Shown: positions 27,184-38,759, counted from the first letter of the stretch. The stretch is DNA of 64,000 bases from an uncultured Candidatus Saccharibacteria bacterium (GCA_964482735.1 CAYZYV010000003.1:63097-127096); one strand, 5' to 3'. Translations and numbers: made by a program. The notes: generated by a model not told the origin, from the sequence alone.

Positions 27184-27891
27184 ATGGAAAACACAGAACA
27201 TCATCACGAACCAAATGATTGGAAAAAATATACGATAGTCTTATTTATAACGCTTACGATTTTTATATCTGGACTATGGTTTTCAAATCATTTAAATAGC
27301 AAGAAAATAGCTCAGTTGAAATCTATAGAAAGTACGATATCTTTAGACTTGCTTTCTTCTGAAGTGCAGTATTCGTTGCTTGAGGAACAGTCTTGTAAAG
27401 ATATTTCAAACTCAGTTCTATCCAAAGAGTTGAACTCATTAGCAGATAAAATTTCTTACAGTGAAAGTAATATCGGAGTAGACAACACTGATGTAGTTAG
27501 TCTAAAGAAATACTATTCTCTACTAGAGATTAAAGATTATCTTTTAATGAAAAAGATAACAGAGAGATGTGGAGAGAAATCTATTTTTGTTCTCTATTTC
27601 TATAAAAATGACAACTGTGAAGAATGTACTAAACAAGGATATGTATTAACTACCTTAAGAGAAAAATATCCTAACTTACGCGTATATTCTTTTGACTACA
27701 AACTAGATAATCCTGCAATTAAGGCTATGATTTCTATATATAAAGTTCCAGATAATCTCCCAGCCTTGGTTATTAATGGTAAGGTTCATAGTGGATTTAA
27801 GAGTATAGAAGAAATAGAAAAGACCTTTCCTGAACTTGAAAAAAGCGCCAAAGATACATCTTCTAAGGTGAAGACAACAACTAAAAAATAA
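27184..27891 (+). CDS. Membrane-anchored thioredoxin-like protein with a CEEC motif
   Basis: N-terminal TM. YFYKNDNCEECTKQGY...LPALVINGKVHSGF resembles a Trx/Grx fold with a CxxC. Confidence 0.45.
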   Translation: MENTEHHHEPNDWKKYTIVLFITLTIFISGLWFSNHLNSKKIAQLKSIESTISLDLLSSEVQYSLLEEQSCKDISNSVLSKELNSLADKISYSESNIGVDNTDVVSLKKYYSLLEIKDYLLMKKITERCGEKSIFVLYFYKNDNCEECTKQGYVLTTLREKYPNLRVYSFDYKLDNPAIKAMISIYKVPDNLPALVINGKVHSGFKSIEEIEKTFPELEKSAKDTSSKVKTTTKK

Positions 27892-27898
27892 AAAAATG

Positions 27899-27930
27899 AA
27901 AACCCTCAATACTGAGGGTTTTCATTTTTT
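27899..27930 (+). terminator. Intrinsic terminator
   Basis: aaaaccctcaatactgagggttttcatttttt. Confidence 0.65.
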
Positions 27931-27939
27931 ATGTATAGT

Positions 27940-28163
27940 CGCCTTAGAGACTCGAACGTGAGGAAGCCTCTTCGCTTTAGTTATGCTTTGACATAACCTA
28001 TATGTTTAATAATGAACTGCTTAACAGGCTTAAACAGAGAAGCCCTTCACTTTAGTTATGCTTTGACATAACCTATATACTTGTTATTGAGCCGCTTCAG
28101 AGACTCGAAGGTGAGGAAGCACTTCGCTTTAGTTATGCTTTGACATAACCTATATTTTTTTAC
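27940..28163 (-). repeat. Three tandem ~75-bp direct repeats. Each is a ~37-nt copy of the tRNA-Thr 3' half (T-arm plus acceptor 3' strand) joined to a conserved hairpin gttatg-ctttga-cataac
   Basis: The units begin at 27940, 28013 and 28088. The motif cgctttagttatgctttgacataacctata recurs with period 75/77/72 and continues in register into the intact tRNA. Confidence 0.8.
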
Positions 28164-31870: not shown

Positions 31871-32917
31871 ATGTTAAAAAAATTTTACAGAATGTTTTCT
31901 AATGATATCGGAATTGACCTAGGGACAGCAAATACTCTAGTTTATTTGAGAGGTCATGGAATAGTAATAAGTGAACCTTCTGTAGTGGTAGTAAATCAAA
32001 AAACAGGTCAAATCGTGGCTGTAGGGAATGAAGCAAAACAAATGCTAGGACGTACTCCTGGACATATTAGAGCCGTGAGACCAATTGTAGATGGTGTTAT
32101 TTCGGATTTTGAAGTAACAGAAGAAATGATTACTTATCTAATAAATAAAACAGAAAAAATTTCTAAAAAAATTATTCACCCTCGAGTAGTGGTTGGAGTT
32201 CCTACTGGGATTACCAATGTTGAAATCAGAGCGGTAGAAGATGCGGCTAGATCTGCAGGGGCTAGAGAAGTTTATATAGTAGAGGAACCAATGGCTGCAG
32301 CAATTGGGATAAGATTGCCGGTAAAAGAAGCCGTAGGATCAGTGATAGTTGATATTGGAGGAGGAACGACGGATGTTGCTGTAATATCACTTTCTGGAGT
32401 TGTTTGTTCAAAGAATATAAAAGTAGCGGGGGATCTTTTAAACTCTGACATTGCCAATTACATGAAGGACGAGTTTAAACTTCTTATCGGAGAAAGGACA
32501 GCAGAAAACGTAAAAATTGCGATAGGAACAGTAATAGAAAGTGAACCAATGGAAGCTGAAGTTCGGGGTAGAGATTTGGTTACAGGATTGCCTCGACAAG
32601 TTATTGTCACAGATTCTGATATAAGAGAAGCTATCATGCCTTCAATTATGACACTGCTCGATGGAATAAAAGAAGTTCTTGAAACAACACCACCTGAATT
32701 ATTGTCTGATATTATCAATCGAGGTTTGGTATTGTCTGGTGGGGGAGCACTTATAAGAGGATTTGATGTTTTGTTGAGAAATACACTTAAAATACCTGTT
32801 TATTCAGCAGAAGATCCATTAACAGCCGTAGCGAGAGGTGCTGGAATAATTTTAGATGACTTTGATTCGTATAAGGAAGTATTGTTAAACACAGATGATG
32901 CTCAAGTACCAAGATAA
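31871..32917 (+). CDS. mreB: Rod shape-determining actin homologue MreB
   Basis: GIDLGTANTLVY...DIGGGTTDVAVISL actin-fold motifs. Confidence 0.9.
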   Translation: MLKKFYRMFSNDIGIDLGTANTLVYLRGHGIVISEPSVVVVNQKTGQIVAVGNEAKQMLGRTPGHIRAVRPIVDGVISDFEVTEEMITYLINKTEKISKKIIHPRVVVGVPTGITNVEIRAVEDAARSAGAREVYIVEEPMAAAIGIRLPVKEAVGSVIVDIGGGTTDVAVISLSGVVCSKNIKVAGDLLNSDIANYMKDEFKLLIGERTAENVKIAIGTVIESEPMEAEVRGRDLVTGLPRQVIVTDSDIREAIMPSIMTLLDGIKEVLETTPPELLSDIINRGLVLSGGGALIRGFDVLLRNTLKIPVYSAEDPLTAVARGAGIILDDFDSYKEVLLNTDDAQVPR

Positions 32918-33692
32918 AAATAAAATAAGAAAAAATAAAAAATCTATTACCGGTATAATAGTTTTGGTTTTATTTTTCTTAGTTACAGCTTTGGGTGCAT
33001 GGAGTTTTATCCGTGGCCCTATTAATTTTGTTAGTCGTCCGTTTTTAATGATTGGTGACTGGTTTTCTCGTGGTTTTAATAATATAGAATTTTATTTTGA
33101 TTCAAAAAAAGAATTGTCCAATCAAAATGTTTTACTAAATGAAGAAAACTTATCTCTAAAAGCTAAACTAGAAGATTATTCAATTTTGGAAAATGAAAAT
33201 GAAGAATTAAAAAATATCTTAAATAGAACTAAAAAAATAAATAATTATGTGCTTGCTAATATCTTAACTAAACCAAACCGTTCTTTGTACGATTCAGTAA
33301 TTTTGGATATAGGTAAAAAGGATAGTTTAGAGATAGGGGATATGGCCTATGCTTATGGAGAAATTCCAGTAGGAAAAATATCCGAAGTCTATGAAAATTC
33401 ATCTCTCCTAACCTTTTTCTCAAGTCCTGGATTGAAAACAGAAGGTTTTATTAATGAAGTAAACGCAACCATTGAATTGGTGGGTAGAGGGGGAGGTAAT
33501 TTTGAAGCAATAATTCCTGTAGACTTGAGCCTAGAAAAAGACACCATTATTTATTTTCCAGAATACAATTCTCAGGTTTTAGCTAAAATAGTTGAAACAA
33601 TTTCTAATCCTAGTGACCCATTTAAAAAAGTAATTTTAGTATCTCCTGTAAGTTTAGAAAGTTTAAAATGGGTTCAAGTTAAGACGGAGTAG
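32895..33692 (+). CDS. mreC: Rod shape-determining protein MreC (probable)
   Basis: N-terminal TM, coiled-coil, C-terminal beta-rich domain; overlaps mreB by 23 nt. Confidence 0.6.
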   Translation: MMLKYQDKNKIRKNKKSITGIIVLVLFFLVTALGAWSFIRGPINFVSRPFLMIGDWFSRGFNNIEFYFDSKKELSNQNVLLNEENLSLKAKLEDYSILENENEELKNILNRTKKINNYVLANILTKPNRSLYDSVILDIGKKDSLEIGDMAYAYGEIPVGKISEVYENSSLLTFFSSPGLKTEGFINEVNATIELVGRGGGNFEAIIPVDLSLEKDTIIYFPEYNSQVLAKIVETISNPSDPFKKVILVSPVSLESLKWVQVKTE

Positions 33693-33704
33693 TAGAAATA
33701 TATC

Positions 33705-36700
33705 ATGAATTATATAGAACAAATTCAAAAGTATTATAAAGATGAGAATAGTAGTGAGATGTCATACAGGACACCTTTTCAAAATTTTCTAGAAAGTATT
33801 TTTACGAAAGAGGATAAATATTTTGTTCAACATGACCAAAAAGCGATAGATGGTAATAAGCCAGATTTTATTATTTTGAAAAACAATATTCCTGTTTTAT
33901 ATATAGAAGTTAAAAAAGTAGGAGAAGATTTAGATAAAATAGAGAAGTCAAACCAAGCTGATAGATACTTCGGATATGACAACTTGATAATTAGTGATTA
34001 TATAAATTTTCGATTTTATAGATATGGGAAAAGATATGAAGAGGAAATTTCACTTGGTAAACTAAATAAAAATGAAAAAAGTATAGAAGAAGGGAATAAA
34101 GAAGAAGTACTTATTAAAACTATTCTAGATTTTACCAATTCTCATAAAGAGGAGATTAAATCAGGACGACACTTAGCAGAAATAATGGGTGGTAAAGCTC
34201 TTCGTATAAGGGAGAATATTTTTTACATGCTTTCATCTCAGAGTGATAGATTTGAAGAGTTGAATAAAATTAAAGAAGTTGTTAAGGAAAATCTTATTAG
34301 TAATATTTCTGATGAAGATTTTGCTGATATGTATTCTCAAACCCTCGTTTATGGTCTTTTTGCTTCTAGATATAATGACAAAACTGAAGATACTTTTTCT
34401 AGACATGAAGCGATAGATTTAGCACCAAAGACAAACCCATTTCTTAAAAAGTTTTTTGGACATATTGCAGGCGAATCTTTTCCAGACAGGCTTCGCTTTA
34501 TTGTGGATGAGCTTTGCGAGGTTTTTTCTCATGCGGATGTTCATAAACTTCTTACGGATTTCTATGGAAAAGAGAAGGACAATAAGGATCCAATTATTCA
34601 TTTTTACGAAGATTTCTTGAAAGAATATGACAGTAAAAAGAAAATGGATATGGGCGTTTTCTATACCCCGAAGCCAGTTGTGGATTTTATAATTCGTGGA
34701 GTTGATTATATTTTAAAAAATGATTTTAGCTTATCTGATGGTTTGGTAAGCAAAGAGAAAATAAAATTGGAGAAAAAGATAATAGACGAGAAAACTGGTA
34801 AAGATAAAAAAATTGAAGAAGAATATCACAAAGTCCAAATCTTAGATATAGCCACAGGTACAGGGACTTTCTTAAACGAAACAATTTCTTTTATTTATAA
34901 TTCTTTTAAAGAAAAAGGACAGCTTGGCGGGTGGGATAGTTATGTAAATGAACATTTACTTCCACGACTTCACGGTTTTGAAATAATGATGGCTTCCTAT
35001 ACTATCGCTCACTTGAAGCTTGGAATGACTTTAGAAGATACAGGTATAGATACAGATAAACTAAATAAAAGATTAGGGGTTTATCTTACTAATACCCTTG
35101 AAGAAGCGAAAGATTATTCTAACCAAGGGACACTTTTTGGTTTTATGGACTCTATTGCTGAAGAAGCAAAAAGTGCTTCAAAGATAAAGAAAGAATATCC
35201 AATAATGTGTGTGATAGGCAATCCTCCTTATTCTATTTCTTCACAGAACAAAGGTGAATGGATTTTAAAATTGATAGATGATTATAAAAAAGATTTAAAT
35301 GAAAAGAAAATAAATATAGATGATGATTATATAAAGTTTATTCGTTTTGGACAATATATGGTAGATAAAAATGGAGGAGGAATTCTTGCATATATTTCTA
35401 ATAATTCTTTTATTTCTGGTGTTACTCACAGGAAGATGCGTGAATCTTTATTAAAATCTTTTGATAAAATTTATGTTTTAGATTTACATGGGAATGCTAG
35501 ATTAAAGGAAGTTTGTCCAGATGGAAGCAAAGACCAAAATGTTTTTGATATTATGCAAGGAGTCTCTATAAATATTTTTGTTAAAAGTGAAAATAAAAAA
35601 GAAGGACTTGGAAAAGTTTATCATAGAGATTTATATGGGAATAGAAAAGATAAATTTGAATTTTTATTTAATACAAAATTTGAAGATACAAAATGGAAAG
35701 AATTAGAATACTTTGAGCCTTATTATTTCTTTGTACCCAAAGATTTTGGACTAAAAGATGAATATGATAAAGGATTTAAAATAGATGATTTTTTTATGGA
35801 ATATAATTCTGGAATTCAAACAAAAAGAGATGACTTAGCAATTTCTTTTGAAAAAAAAGAAATGGATATCAAAATTAATGATATTTTAAATTTAAACAGC
35901 CTAGAACTTAAATACAAATACAAATTACCAGAAGATGGGAGAGATTGGAAAATTGATTGGGCAAAAAAGGATTTAAAAATTGACTATCAAATAATAAATA
36001 TTTTATATAGGCCATTTGACATAAGATATGTTGCATACACGAGAAGATCTAAGGGCTTGATTGCATACCCAAGAGAAAAAATAAATCAATATATTGTTAA
36101 TAAAGATAATTTATCATTGTTAACTTGCAGAAATCAAGATTTTAATGATATTTGTTTGATAACAGATAAAATTTCTGATCTTAGGACATATTCTAATCCA
36201 GGGTCGCTTGGAACTGATTATGTTTTTCCTCTTTGTCTTTATAAAAATCAAGAAAAAATTCCAAACTTAAATAAAGAAATTTGGGGGAAAATAAATGAGG
36301 AAGTTGGGGAAACCACACCAGAAAACATTTTGGATTATATTTATGCTGTTTTACATAGCCCCAAATACAGAGAAAAATACAAAGAATTTTTGAAAATTGA
36401 TTTTCCGCGAGTTCCTTATCCAGAAGGCAAAGAAAAATTTTGGAATTTGGTAAAAATTGGCGAGAAATTACGAGGCTTACATTTGATGATAGATAAATCT
36501 ATTAGTGATTTTATCACTACTTATGCTGTGTTGGGTAACAACTTGGTAGATAAAATTTCTTATAAAGATGGAAATGTTTATATAAACAAAGATCAGTATT
36601 TTGGAAATGTTCCCGAAATTGCTTGGAATTTCTACATAGGTGGTTATCAGCCAGCTCAAAAATATCTTAAAGATAGAAAAGGTAGAATTCTCACAAGTGA

Positions 36701-36782
36701 CGAAATAGAACACTATCAGAAAATCATAAAAGTTCTCGTTGAGACGGATAAAATAATGAGGGGAATAGATAAAATAAGATAA
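33705..36782 (+). CDS. MmeI-family Type IIL (IIG) restriction-modification enzyme: PD-ExK endonuclease, gamma-class N6-adenine methyltransferase and target-recognition domain in one polypeptide
   Basis: The N-terminus KPDFIILKNNIPVLYIEVKKVGEDLDKIEKSNQADRYF parallels the MmeI D...EXK nuclease and DLDKA...DYF region. Methyltransferase motif I ILDIATGTGTFL and motif IV VIGNPPYS. 1025 aa. Confidence 0.8.
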   Translation: MNYIEQIQKYYKDENSSEMSYRTPFQNFLESIFTKEDKYFVQHDQKAIDGNKPDFIILKNNIPVLYIEVKKVGEDLDKIEKSNQADRYFGYDNLIISDYINFRFYRYGKRYEEEISLGKLNKNEKSIEEGNKEEVLIKTILDFTNSHKEEIKSGRHLAEIMGGKALRIRENIFYMLSSQSDRFEELNKIKEVVKENLISNISDEDFADMYSQTLVYGLFASRYNDKTEDTFSRHEAIDLAPKTNPFLKKFFGHIAGESFPDRLRFIVDELCEVFSHADVHKLLTDFYGKEKDNKDPIIHFYEDFLKEYDSKKKMDMGVFYTPKPVVDFIIRGVDYILKNDFSLSDGLVSKEKIKLEKKIIDEKTGKDKKIEEEYHKVQILDIATGTGTFLNETISFIYNSFKEKGQLGGWDSYVNEHLLPRLHGFEIMMASYTIAHLKLGMTLEDTGIDTDKLNKRLGVYLTNTLEEAKDYSNQGTLFGFMDSIAEEAKSASKIKKEYPIMCVIGNPPYSISSQNKGEWILKLIDDYKKDLNEKKINIDDDYIKFIRFGQYMVDKNGGGILAYISNNSFISGVTHRKMRESLLKSFDKIYVLDLHGNARLKEVCPDGSKDQNVFDIMQGVSINIFVKSENKKEGLGKVYHRDLYGNRKDKFEFLFNTKFEDTKWKELEYFEPYYFFVPKDFGLKDEYDKGFKIDDFFMEYNSGIQTKRDDLAISFEKKEMDIKINDILNLNSLELKYKYKLPEDGRDWKIDWAKKDLKIDYQIINILYRPFDIRYVAYTRRSKGLIAYPREKINQYIVNKDNLSLLTCRNQDFNDICLITDKISDLRTYSNPGSLGTDYVFPLCLYKNQEKIPNLNKEIWGKINEEVGETTPENILDYIYAVLHSPKYREKYKEFLKIDFPRVPYPEGKEKFWNLVKIGEKLRGLHLMIDKSISDFITTYAVLGNNLVDKISYKDGNVYINKDQYFGNVPEIAWNFYIGGYQPAQKYLKDRKGRILTSDEIEHYQKIIKVLVETDKIMRGIDKIR

Positions 36783-36785
36783 TTT

Positions 36786-37358
36786 ATGGAAGAAAATAAA
36801 CAAAAAATTGTATATGTGTTTATTGATGCTTCAAACCTTTGGCAAGCACAAAAAGTAAAAGGTAGATTATTTGATTTTGAAAAACTTAAATTTTATTTAA
36901 AGAAAAATTTTAATGCATTAGAATTTCAAGTATTTTATTACACAGCTTATCCCAAAGAAGGAACTAGGGAAAACAGTCAAGATGGAAAACATAAATTTTT
37001 TACTTATCTAAAAAAGGGTTTAGGTTTTATTGTTAGAAAAAAAGAATTAAAGAGAATTGTAGAACATAACGAGCAGGGAGACATAATACAAGAAAAAGGA
37101 AATATGGATGTTGAGATGACAATAGATGCAATCCATTTTTGTAAAAAATACGATATTGCTGTTTTGTTTACGGGAGATTCTGACTTTTTAGCATTGGTGA
37201 ATTATATAAGAAATGGAAGTAAGAAAGTTTTTATATTTTCGTCTAAAAACAATGTATCTCAAGAGCTGAGGACTGGAGGAGATGGATATTTTGATGTATT
37301 AGATATAAAAGAAGATATATGGGGGAGAGAACTAAAACATAGAGATGATAAATCTTAA
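36786..37358 (+). CDS. NYN-domain (LabA-like, PIN-fold) nuclease
   Basis: VYVFIDASNLW...AVLFTGDSDFLALVNYIR...KVFIFS matches the NYN/PF01936 pattern. Starts 4 nt after the RM gene stop. Confidence 0.75.
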   Translation: MEENKQKIVYVFIDASNLWQAQKVKGRLFDFEKLKFYLKKNFNALEFQVFYYTAYPKEGTRENSQDGKHKFFTYLKKGLGFIVRKKELKRIVEHNEQGDIIQEKGNMDVEMTIDAIHFCKKYDIAVLFTGDSDFLALVNYIRNGSKKVFIFSSKNNVSQELRTGGDGYFDVLDIKEDIWGRELKHRDDKS

Positions 37359-37493
37359 ATAAAAGTAGCCCTCCTTGCGGAGGGCTACCCTTGGATGTAA
37401 TACCCTTAAAGTTTTATGACTAAAACCCTAAGACAAGTTAAATATAGCATATTTGTAATTTGTGTGCAATACTTATCGTTATGTGTAAAAAAT

Positions 37494-38759
37494 ATGGAAA
37501 AAATTTTTAATTTTAAAATAGAAAAAAAAATAGAAGGGGCTTTAGGGCGGGCTGGTGTTTTATCTACACCGCACGGAGATATACTGACGCCTTCTTTTGT
37601 GGTTGTTGGAACGAAGGCAACCGTTAAGAGTGTTTTGCCTGAAAAATTAATAGAAAATAAAATCCAAGTAGTTCTCGCAAATACTTACCATCTTTATCTT
37701 CAACCTGGAGATGAATTAATAAAAAAAGCTGGTGGGTTACATCAGTTTATGAATTGGCATGGCCCTATGATGACAGATTCTGGAGGGTTTCAAGTTTTTT
37801 CTTTAGGAGTAGCTTATGGTAAAGAATTATCCAAAGTTGTTTCTATTAGTGATCCAAGCTTGCTTATTACAGAGAGATCTTCGGCGGATGACGGAGTTCC
37901 TAAGCTAGCTACAGTTGGTAATGACGGAGTTTCTTTTAGATCTCACATAGATGGTTCTTTGCACTATATTACCCCTGAAAAATCAATAGAAATACAACAT
38001 AATTTAGGGGCCGATATAATGTTTGCTTTTGATGAATGTACTTCACCTGTAGAAAACAATAGGTATCAAGAAGAGGCTTTGTTTCGCACTCATGCATGGG
38101 CAAAGAGGAGCCTAAAAAAGCATTTAGAATTGGAAAATGAAAAGATTTTACAGAGAGAAGGTAATGATATTTCTATGACAAAACAACAAGCCCTTTTTGG
38201 TATTGTTCAAGGTGGAAGGAATGAGGAACTTCGTAAAAAGTCAGCAAAAGAGATATCTGAAATGCAAATAGACGGGAAGGGGTTTGATGGTTTTGGAATA
38301 GGAGGAAGTTTTGCTAAAGAAGATATGTCGACAGCATGTAAATGGGTTAATGAAATTTTACCAGAAGATAAACCAAGGCATTTGCTTGGTATAGGGGAGC
38401 CAGAAGATTTATTTATGGGAGTAGAAAATGGAGTAGATCTTTTTGACTGTGTGGGTCCAACAAGAATAGCTAGAAATGGAAGTTTATTTACACGATTCGG
38501 GAAAATAAATTTGCTAAATGAAAAATATAAAAATGATTTTTCTCCTATTGAAGAGGGTTGTAAATGCAGTACTTGTAAAAATTATACAAAAGCATATTTG
38601 TCACACTTATTTAGATCTAAAGAAATGTTAGGAGCGACGTTAGCTACTATTCATAATGTTTATTTTATAAACAAGCTCGTTCAAGATATGCGAACGTCCA
38701 TATTAGAAAATAGATTTACTGAGTTTAAAAATAGTTTTTTAAAAGATTATCAGAAATAA
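37494..38759 (+). CDS. tgt: Queuine tRNA-ribosyltransferase
   Basis: GDILTPSFVVVGTKA, MTDSGGFQVFSLG, zinc site CKCSTCKNYTKAYLSHL. Start at MEKIFNF (alternative upstream ATG at 37416). Confidence 0.85.
   Translation: MEKIFNFKIEKKIEGALGRAGVLSTPHGDILTPSFVVVGTKATVKSVLPEKLIENKIQVVLANTYHLYLQPGDELIKKAGGLHQFMNWHGPMMTDSGGFQVFSLGVAYGKELSKVVSISDPSLLITERSSADDGVPKLATVGNDGVSFRSHIDGSLHYITPEKSIEIQHNLGADIMFAFDECTSPVENNRYQEEALFRTHAWAKRSLKKHLELENEKILQREGNDISMTKQQALFGIVQGGRNEELRKKSAKEISEMQIDGKGFDGFGIGGSFAKEDMSTACKWVNEILPEDKPRHLLGIGEPEDLFMGVENGVDLFDCVGPTRIARNGSLFTRFGKINLLNEKYKNDFSPIEEGCKCSTCKNYTKAYLSHLFRSKEMLGATLATIHNVYFINKLVQDMRTSILENRFTEFKNSFLKDYQK

Follow-up and report, generated by a model that had tools for sequence, protein, structure and literature searches.

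In the par system of Enterococcus (Fst, RNA I/RNA II) and in the 3′-overlapping type I toxin–antitoxin (TA) systems of Bacillus, the toxin mRNA and the antitoxin RNA are transcribed convergently and have a terminator region in common; the toxins of these systems are small membrane peptides, and the 5′ repeats of par pair with the translation start. ToxIN and the other type III TA systems combine an endoribonuclease with an antitoxin RNA made of tandem repeats, which is encoded upstream on the same strand and processed by the toxin. PrrC of EcoprrI is the classic latent RNase embedded in a restriction–modification (RM) locus. Here, we compare with such systems a locus from an uncultured Candidatus Saccharibacteria bacterium, located in a stretch of 64,000 nucleotides (nt) (GCA_964482735.1, CAYZYV010000003.1:63097–127096; the window hereafter means this whole stretch), in which the gene of a single-chain Type IIL RM enzyme directly precedes a gene for a NYN-domain protein, itself followed by a convergent small RNA (sRNA) gene (Table 1). 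Our preferred interpretation, held with only moderate confidence, is that the RM gene was inserted beside an autonomous, probably TA-like NYN–sRNA module, the two being separable units that are probably co-transcribed and do not form an obligate pair.

The closest functional analogue of the NYN–sRNA module is SymE/SymR, which associates a RNase-associated toxin, a cis-encoded sRNA, LexA control and a linkage to RM loci (PMC1891008). Both have a small cis RNA on the opposite strand, a LexA linkage and an association with RM loci and mobile islands, the toxin role being a presumed one for the NYN protein. However, SymR covers the 5′ end and the translation start of symE, whereas the RNA described here converges on the 3′ end of its neighbour, and SymE has an AbrB fold and not a NYN fold; furthermore, an invariant single-stranded stretch in our sRNA suggests recognition by a protein. 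Another NYN protein, HEC-09, is nested in Hma systems and is a defence candidate through ‘guilt by embedding’ (10.1101/2024.01.29.577857). As described there, HEC-09 is composed of an N-terminal IF2B/5-like helix-turn-helix domain and a C-terminal NYN domain and lies inside Hma, whereas the 190-amino-acid protein of the window contains the NYN domain alone and is not accompanied by Hma; the description consulted mentions no sRNA partner for HEC-09, whereas the NYN protein of the window has one. As for PrrC and HEC-09, NYN genes are found nested in or beside RM or defence operons, but the copy of the window differs from both in being not embedded and ancestral at its site. Finally, an association of PIN-like toxins with type I RM operons has been documented, which close relatives do not share and which was not observed for type II systems (PMC5499597).

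The steady partner of the NYN gene is the sRNA gene and not the RM gene. We surveyed one genome per GTDB species (185,579 species) for the NYN gene and found 276 loci, the best 80 of which were examined (loci are designated below by L numbers). The sRNA element immediately follows the NYN stop codon in 80 of these 80 species loci, and the co-occurrence is strict in all loci examined. The RNAalifold analysis of the sRNA alignment led to a structure of 24 pairs, 11 of which present compensatory changes. In the two helices, 97.7% of the alignment cells pair, as compared with only 39–67% in slid registers, and 145 cells correspond to double changes against 48 ± 5 in shuffled alignments (0 of 500 shuffles reach 145). 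If the NYN strand is taken as the RNA, only 82.6% of the cells would pair, with 248 cells corresponding to G–U pairs; since pairing falls on that strand, this G–U asymmetry indicates that the sRNA is transcribed towards NYN. A plus-strand 3′ untranslated region and an attC-like structure were considered for this element and rejected on account of the G–U asymmetry, the minus-strand promoter and the U-tract.

The sRNA promoter has the consensus TTGACT-N17-TATACT over the loci, followed by about 7 nt to the RNA; the columns of the −10 box are at least 90% conserved in the alignment, and the −35 box is conserved too. A promoter scan of the window lists this promoter as TGCACA/16/TATATT; the terminator hairpin was not reported by the promoter/terminator scan and is described here from the sequence and the covariation. 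Between the P1 hairpin and the terminator hairpin lies the single-stranded stretch GGGUAUUACAUCCAAGGG, which is invariant across phyla, and no second target of the invariant 16-mer was detected in the window with up to 3 mismatches. Rfam 15 yielded no family for the sRNA at the gathering threshold or at E ≤ 10, the sole matches being terminator-driven and on the minus strand. A covariance model, R1, detects the sRNA with 64–99 bits beside NYN in the window, L009, L093 and L173–L175, as well as in six species loci missed by a sequence-pattern scan, which found it in the remaining NYN loci. R1 and the pattern scan did not find the sRNA in RM loci lacking an orthologous NYN gene. A weak R1 match on the minus strand of the window (20.7 bits, E about 0.03; Table 1) probably corresponds just to a terminator hairpin. 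No description of the NYN–sRNA pair was found in the literature searched on NYN proteins and RNA antitoxins, antisense RNA or the candidate phyla radiation (CPR).

The NYN assignment of the 190-amino-acid protein is supported by Pfam (PF01936, E = 4.6e-21, 76.3 bits against a gathering cutoff of 24.2) and by PADLOC (‘NYN’, 1.6e-13; HEC-09, a weak match at 4e-7). Its match in the PDB is 2qip, and an AlphaFold2 (AF2) model with a predicted local distance difference test (pLDDT) score of 82.4 matches both 2qip (1e-10) and the NYN RNase domain of MARF1 (1.6e-4). The first-pass annotation, made on the window alone, had called this gene a NYN/LabA-like PIN-fold nuclease, and both the hidden Markov model (HMM) assignment and the modelled fold agree. 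Among 24 homologues, residues D14, D131, D133, N17 and N106 are invariant and D108 is at least 90% conserved, the acidic ones being those expected to bind metal; this NYN/LabA-like (COG1432-type) protein is predicted to be a metal-dependent RNase. The top 120 database matches are 72–86% identical and the 80 species representatives, from many CPR lineages, 66–85% identical, and NYN is about as conserved as the MreB protein of the same loci. No Shine–Dalgarno-like sequence was found before NYN. The sequence TAATTTATG precedes the gene, including in relatives without RM, and is present in the junctions of the nine relatives examined, whatever the upstream gene. Translation of NYN probably relies on coupling or on read-through transcripts, which would also explain its short junction with the RM gene.

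The RM–NYN pair is not conserved. The first-pass annotation had suggested that NYN could be an accessory of the RM enzyme, in a pairing not known to it as a described system, a proposal that would fall if NYN were found by mreC and tgt in relatives without RM; this arrangement (mreC, NYN, tgt) is present in L014, L022 and L026, with mreC–NYN gaps of 69, 15 and 73 nt. In L017, an EcoRI-type methylase and a GmrSD/HNH protein are located between mreC and NYN. Among the 80 NYN loci, this RM family lies immediately before NYN in L015 alone, and L085 has the RM gene 2 kb off. The suggested comparison of the pairing across genomes gave the same answer from the side of the RM gene, for which we gathered 80 metagenome loci (46–72% identical), 70 of them with at least 400 nt downstream: an orthologous NYN gene is present in only 1 of these 70, L093, a mreC...tgt locus with an unannotated open reading frame (ORF) of 204 amino acids in between. 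The order is mreC–RM–LPD3–tgt, without NYN, in L180 and mreC–RM–DUF2188–DUF3800 in L178, and the RM gene of L176 lies in a different context, also without NYN. An obligate RM–NYN pair is thus rejected by the neighbourhood data in both directions, and identity matrices show no congruence that would point to a RM–NYN co-phylogeny. Of the two roles envisaged initially for the NYN gene, accessory of the RM enzyme or independent toxin-like module, the former is not retained and the latter fits better: NYN has an obligate RNA partner, and the module has boundaries of its own.

The window’s nearest relatives (80–84% identical in ProRS and 82–87% in MreB) lack the RM gene, whereas more distant genomes carry it; the RM enzyme of L178, for instance, is 74% identical, yet its MreB is only 71% identical. 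This suggests that the RM gene is exchangeable cargo of a variable slot. The mreC–tgt interval can be empty or contain a Type IIL RM gene, an EcoRI-type methylase with GmrSD/HNH, DUF2188 with DUF3800, a LPD3-like gene or the 204-amino-acid ORF. In L173, the RM gene is part of a small island 3 kb upstream of NYN, and the NYN locus L174 is devoid of this island.

The RM gene fills the variable slot that extends from mreC to the next unit. In the mechanism that we propose, the NYN-fold RNase would form with the convergent RNA of about 75 nt, whose terminator lies at the NYN stop codon, a two-component module. The sRNA would restrain NYN, and NYN would cut cellular or invader RNA when the sRNA level falls or when transcription is perturbed. 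Restraint would more likely proceed by direct, sequence-specific binding of the RNA to the protein, as inhibitor or decoy substrate, in a way reminiscent of type III TA systems; a less likely route is an antisense duplex between the sRNA and the 3′ end of a read-through NYN mRNA, as in type I systems such as SymE/SymR or par. Recognition by the protein is favoured because a purely cis-acting antisense RNA has no need of an invariant single-stranded stretch. The module nevertheless corresponds fully to neither type. It resembles par and the Bacillus type I systems by its convergent transcription and shared terminator region, the sRNA terminator abutting the NYN stop codon so that an overlap with the mRNA would depend on read-through. 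A par-like pairing between the 5′ part of the sRNA and the NYN start is not supported, the duplex energy being no better than with other genes of the same loci (p = 0.76), which sets it apart from par. As in ToxIN, a (here predicted) endoribonuclease is combined with a structured RNA that may act as an inhibitor by binding to it, but the NYN sRNA is single-copy, located downstream on the opposite strand and independently transcribed, so that the type III trait of a tandem-repeat RNA upstream on the same strand is missing.

The RM enzyme is a new but unremarkable representative of the DrdV-like Type IIL enzymes. It is a fusion of nuclease, methylase and target-recognition domain (TRD) in one polypeptide, identified as REase_MTase_IIG by PADLOC (2.6e-275). 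Pfam detected the TRD as Type_ISP_C (8e-77, 259 bits, amino acids 695–1019), together with Eco57I and N6_Mtase matches and a weak HSDR_N match at amino acids 47–108. The N-terminal PD-ExK nuclease (P53-D54...E68-V-K70) is followed by a gamma-class N6-adenine methylase at amino acids ~290–600, with motif I (DxATGTGTF, 381–389) and NPPY (506–509). The enzyme looks active, since neither the nuclease triad nor methylase motif I nor NPPY varies among 29 homologues. The closest solved structures in a single-sequence search were LlaBIII, DrdV and LlaGI, and a PDB search with the profile of the 29 homologues gave DrdV as best match (1e-69), LlaBIII and LlaGI being matched as well. The TRD can be aligned with its counterparts in DrdV and LlaBIII, and the alignments to LlaBIII and LlaGI cover only the methylase–TRD parts of these enzymes. 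The likeness to DrdV extends to the size (about 1025 amino acids), the N-terminal PD-ExK nuclease, a helical linker, the gamma-class N6-adenine methylase and the Type_ISP_C-type TRD, although sequence similarity to DrdV is picked up only beyond about residue 180 with the single sequence, or 278 with the profile, the nuclease domain being unaligned by sequence search.

Two other class assignments were considered and rejected. Homologues of the RM enzyme are named Type ISP by NCBI, but Pfam found no ATPase, translocase or helicase domain in the 1025 amino acids; as Type ISP enzymes have a SF2/RecA-like ATPase translocase between nuclease and methylase, the lack of this domain excludes that class. 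The first-pass annotation had placed the enzyme in the MmeI family of Type IIL enzymes. The single chain and the Type IIL class stand, the latter in its DrdV-like form, and the overall domain order and the presumed one-strand modification are the same as in the MmeI family. However, among the MmeI-specific Pfam domains (MmeI_N, MmeI_hel, MmeI_Mtase, MmeI_TRD and MmeI_C) only MmeI_Mtase gave a match, which with 20.6 bits remains under the cutoff of 27, and the PDB profile search did not retrieve MmeI at E ≤ 1, so that membership in this family is not retained. From these comparisons, the description that suits the protein best is that of a DrdV-like Type IIL enzyme which has its methylase–TRD module in common with Type ISP enzymes. 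By analogy with DrdV, it would recognise an asymmetric site and methylate a single strand, and cleavage would take place close by, presumably at a fixed distance, only once several unmethylated sites meet. In DrdV, methylation takes one site whereas cleavage takes several unmethylated sites and oligomerisation, and the enzyme avoids cutting newly replicated host DNA without an accessory protein (10.1101/2021.01.06.425610). This provides an answer intrinsic to the enzyme to the initial argument that Type IIL enzymes need a way to deal with sites left unmodified after replication.

The NYN–sRNA module is carried by at least 276 GTDB species loci, with a patchy distribution over a small share of the phylum, and its context changes between lineages. 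Most modules are located among housekeeping genes, the typical neighbours being tgt, enolase, SerRS, Mur ligase, rpoBC and CTP synthase. Besides this number and variety of contexts, accessory-like traits include two copies in one metagenome-assembled genome (MAG) and a copy in an isolate of the Bacteroidota. The two copies (L088 and L090, JAUYAT01) are located on different contigs with near-identical sRNAs and correspond either to a true multi-copy situation or to a binning artefact. The isolate, Niastella vici DJ57, encodes on a contig of 404,760 bp (L031) a NYN protein that is 78% identical, with the sRNA; the stretch has a GC content of 33% against 36–44%, and this lower GC suggests horizontal transfer of the module out of CPR. 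Contigs L045 and L046 are identical and were deposited as Azambacteria and Flavobacteriaceae, and other NYN loci are labelled Gammaproteobacteria or Bdellovibrionales; because of such labels, record titles are unreliable for taxonomy.

Genes of RM systems were found within five genes of the NYN–sRNA module in 18 of the 79 distinct loci. Seven loci from several CPR phyla, whose outer flanks differ, present a cassette made of a LexA-like S24 repressor, a HsdM-like methylase, NYN–sRNA, an ORF of about 110 amino acids and HsdS; the HsdM-like gene encodes an N-terminal HSDR_N_2 nuclease and a N6_Mtase domain, and HsdR is absent from the cassette. The module is located between mod and res of Type III systems in L043 and L067, where the convergent promoter and terminator of the sRNA would interrupt the operons, and between hsdS and hsdR in L052. 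Type I genes are present near the module in L055 and L078, a single-chain RM gene directly downstream of it in L082, and an Eco57I-type RM gene two genes upstream of NYN in L045. With a curated list of RM genes, 16 of the 155 immediate neighbours of NYN belong to RM systems, as compared with 5 of 509 genes at least five positions off (p = 3e-7), or 10 of 143 against 5 of 455 if the seven-locus cassette is taken as one event (p = 5e-4); this test is biased, since the models were seeded from NYN neighbours. The list superseded a first set of HMMs with the same seeding, rejected because its HsdR model came to include UvrB and other helicases. In an unbiased Pfam control, which lowered the enrichment, DNA methylases were found at position −1 in 10 of 74 cases, against about 4 of 150 random distant ORFs (~3%; two C5 and two N6/N4), and with the cassette counted once (about 4 of 68 against ~3%) the difference is no longer significant. 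The association between NYN–sRNA and RM systems is real in appearance and modest, and hinges on the independence of the cassette copies. LexA-like repressors are encoded upstream of NYN in 11 loci. In L027, L050, L051 and L019, a LexA-like S24 peptidase gene lies directly upstream of NYN without RM, one of these genes being fused to a Schlafen-type helicase; this arrangement hints at a DNA-damage control of NYN.

Several observations weigh against the interpretation of the locus as an inserted RM gene beside an autonomous, TA-like module. The sequence conservation of NYN is so strong as to be unusual for toxin or defence genes; the NYN–sRNA module was not found in IMG/VR viral contigs or GenBank phage records, and the plasmids of PLSDB hold only NYN relatives of about 30% identity. 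HEC-09 gave no protection against the phages tested (10.1101/2024.01.29.577857). Other points concern the separation of RM and NYN: NYN–sRNA is located between RM subunits in 10 of the 79 distinct loci; RM and NYN are adjacent with the same stop-NNN-ATG junction in a MAG of Paceibacteria (L009), among genes for PIF1, isochorismatase and DUF1801 proteins; the same RM family lies 2–3 kb from NYN in L085 and L173; and NYN subfamilies that are 28–37% identical directly adjoin RM homologues in L133, L154 and L170. The RM–NYN adjacency is not pure chance. NYN–sRNA could be a general partner of RM systems, acting either as a PrrC-like latent RNase freed upon RM inhibition or DNA damage, or as a post-transcriptional controller of RM expression during establishment; the RM–NYN operon of the window would be one case of it. 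Such a role would agree with the position of the module between RM subunits in three arrangements (HsdM-like cassette, Type III and hsdS/hsdR), with its direct contact with single-chain RM genes in the window, L015, L009 and L082 and with an EcoRI-type methylase and GmrSD in L017, with the RM and methylase counts among its neighbours, with the upstream LexA-like repressors, and with the distant NYN genes just mentioned. We regard it as rather unlikely, since about 80% of the modules, among housekeeping genes, have no RM gene nearby, syntenic relatives hold NYN without any RM, at most 1–2% of this RM family has an orthologous NYN gene, and the unbiased enrichment loses its significance with the cassette counted once; moreover, these genomes are RM-rich, so that chance adjacency is not rare. 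A related and unlikely possibility is that NYN and sRNA constitute a RNA-controlled or RNA-guided nuclease module of CPR bacteria, working with several RM types as second-line defence or addiction device, which would explain its repeated nesting between RM subunits and downstream of LexA-like repressors.

Alternatively, NYN and sRNA could serve a housekeeping role in some Patescibacteria, as a ribonucleoprotein or as a pair involved in RNA processing, for instance an enzyme with its substrate or cofactor RNA, and the RM adjacency would then be a coincidence in small, RM-dense genomes. An identity of 66–86% across CPR phyla, comparable to that of MreB, the mostly housekeeping neighbours and the absence from the phage and viral collections searched, with only distant NYN relatives (about 30% identity) on plasmids, would fit with this explanation, as would the earlier linkage of bacterial NYN genes to neighbourhoods of tRNA and rRNA maturation (PMC5499597). 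It appears quite unlikely, in view of the patchy occurrence (276 loci for 185,579 GTDB species) in contexts that shift by lineage, the loss of NYN from the syntenic slot in L180, the two copies in one MAG, the Bacteroidota isolate copy in a stretch of lower GC and the modules embedded inside RM operons. The dedicated two-gene defence system made of RM and NYN, the primary proposal of the first-pass annotation, has in its favour the tight junction on a shared strand in the window and the same junction type in L015 and L009. As an obligate system it is already refuted by the three loci with NYN and no RM (L014, L022 and L026), and with RM devoid of NYN in 69 of 70 loci as well as in L176, L178 and L180, and no co-phylogeny, we consider it very improbable. 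The interpretation that we retain remains that of a RM gene inserted beside a self-standing NYN–sRNA module.

The locus is embedded among housekeeping genes from mreC to tgt, in agreement with the initial description. The upstream order is rpsB, tsf (minus strand), then proS, mreB and mreC, and the downstream order is tgt, uvrB, a gene for a DUF3298/PdaC protein and uvrA. The close spacing of the RM and NYN genes on the plus strand, noted from the start, was confirmed, and 12 nt separate the mreC stop codon from the RM start. The mreC gene is syntenic in L014, L015, L017, L022, L026, L093, L178 and L180. The GC content is about 30% across the window, in which no clear compositional break was found. 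From its homologues and an identical contig, the genome can be assigned to the Patescibacteria (CPR), and there to the Paceibacteria/Nomurabacteria-like group. The ORF-finder start of tgt, 37416, is located inside the sRNA gene, and the public gene call (L001) uses the same ATG; in L014, the stretch equivalent to this 5′ extension contains a stop codon, and the real start of tgt is probably Met27.

Table 1. Coordinates of the features discussed, in the window unless a locus is indicated.
Feature	Position	Strand	Remarks
mreC	32895–33692	+	weak but consistent Pfam MreC and NCBIfam mreC matches
RM gene	33705–36782	+	ORF of 1025 amino acids
PD-ExK motif of the RM enzyme	~33864–33914		
Spacer from RM stop to NYN start	36783–36785		3 nt, TTT; junction TAA-TTT-ATG
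NYN gene	36786–37358	+	ORF of 190 amino acids
sRNA gene	37357–37434	−	~75–77 nt; convergent with NYN
sRNA P1 hairpin	37432–37405	−	10 bp
sRNA invariant single-stranded stretch	37404–37389	−	GGUAUUACAUCCAAGG; 16–18 nt across loci
sRNA terminator hairpin	37388–37365	−	10–12 bp, GC-rich
sRNA U-tract	37364–37357	−	overlaps the NYN stop codon
sRNA sigma-70-type promoter	37441–37469	−	−35 TTGCAC (37469–37464), 17-nt spacer, extended −10 TGnTATATT (−10 at 37446–37441)
tgt (tRNA-guanine transglycosylase)	37494–38759	+	corrected probable start, Met27
Weak R1 match	27887–28006	−	
Seven-locus cassette	L039, L041, L057, L058, L059, L070, L075: about 5.3–10.7 kb in each locus		
NYN–sRNA between mod and res	L043: 3386–8734		Type III
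NYN–sRNA between mod and res	L067: 232–5611		Type III
NYN of Niastella vici DJ57, with sRNA	L031: 7998–8647		
Distant NYN by RM homologue	L133: 1474–2315		consensus sigma-70 promoter convergent on the NYN 3′ end
Distant NYN by RM homologue	L154: 9138–10065		consensus sigma-70 promoter convergent on the NYN 3′ end
Distant NYN by RM homologue	L170: 5211–5924		weak R1 match at the NYN 3′ end

Since RM and NYN do not form a system, a ‘RM plus NYN system’ should not be catalogued. The new item is the NYN–sRNA module, whose RNA is strongly backed by covariation and has no match in Rfam 15. It is present in at least 276 species of a phylum whose RNA-based regulation and TA biology have hardly been described. 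A defined RNA partner provides a direct experimental handle on the LabA-like NYN proteins, whose function is poorly understood. By recurring inside Type I-like, Type III and single-chain RM operons, the module offers a concrete and testable case for the idea of embedded defence genes.

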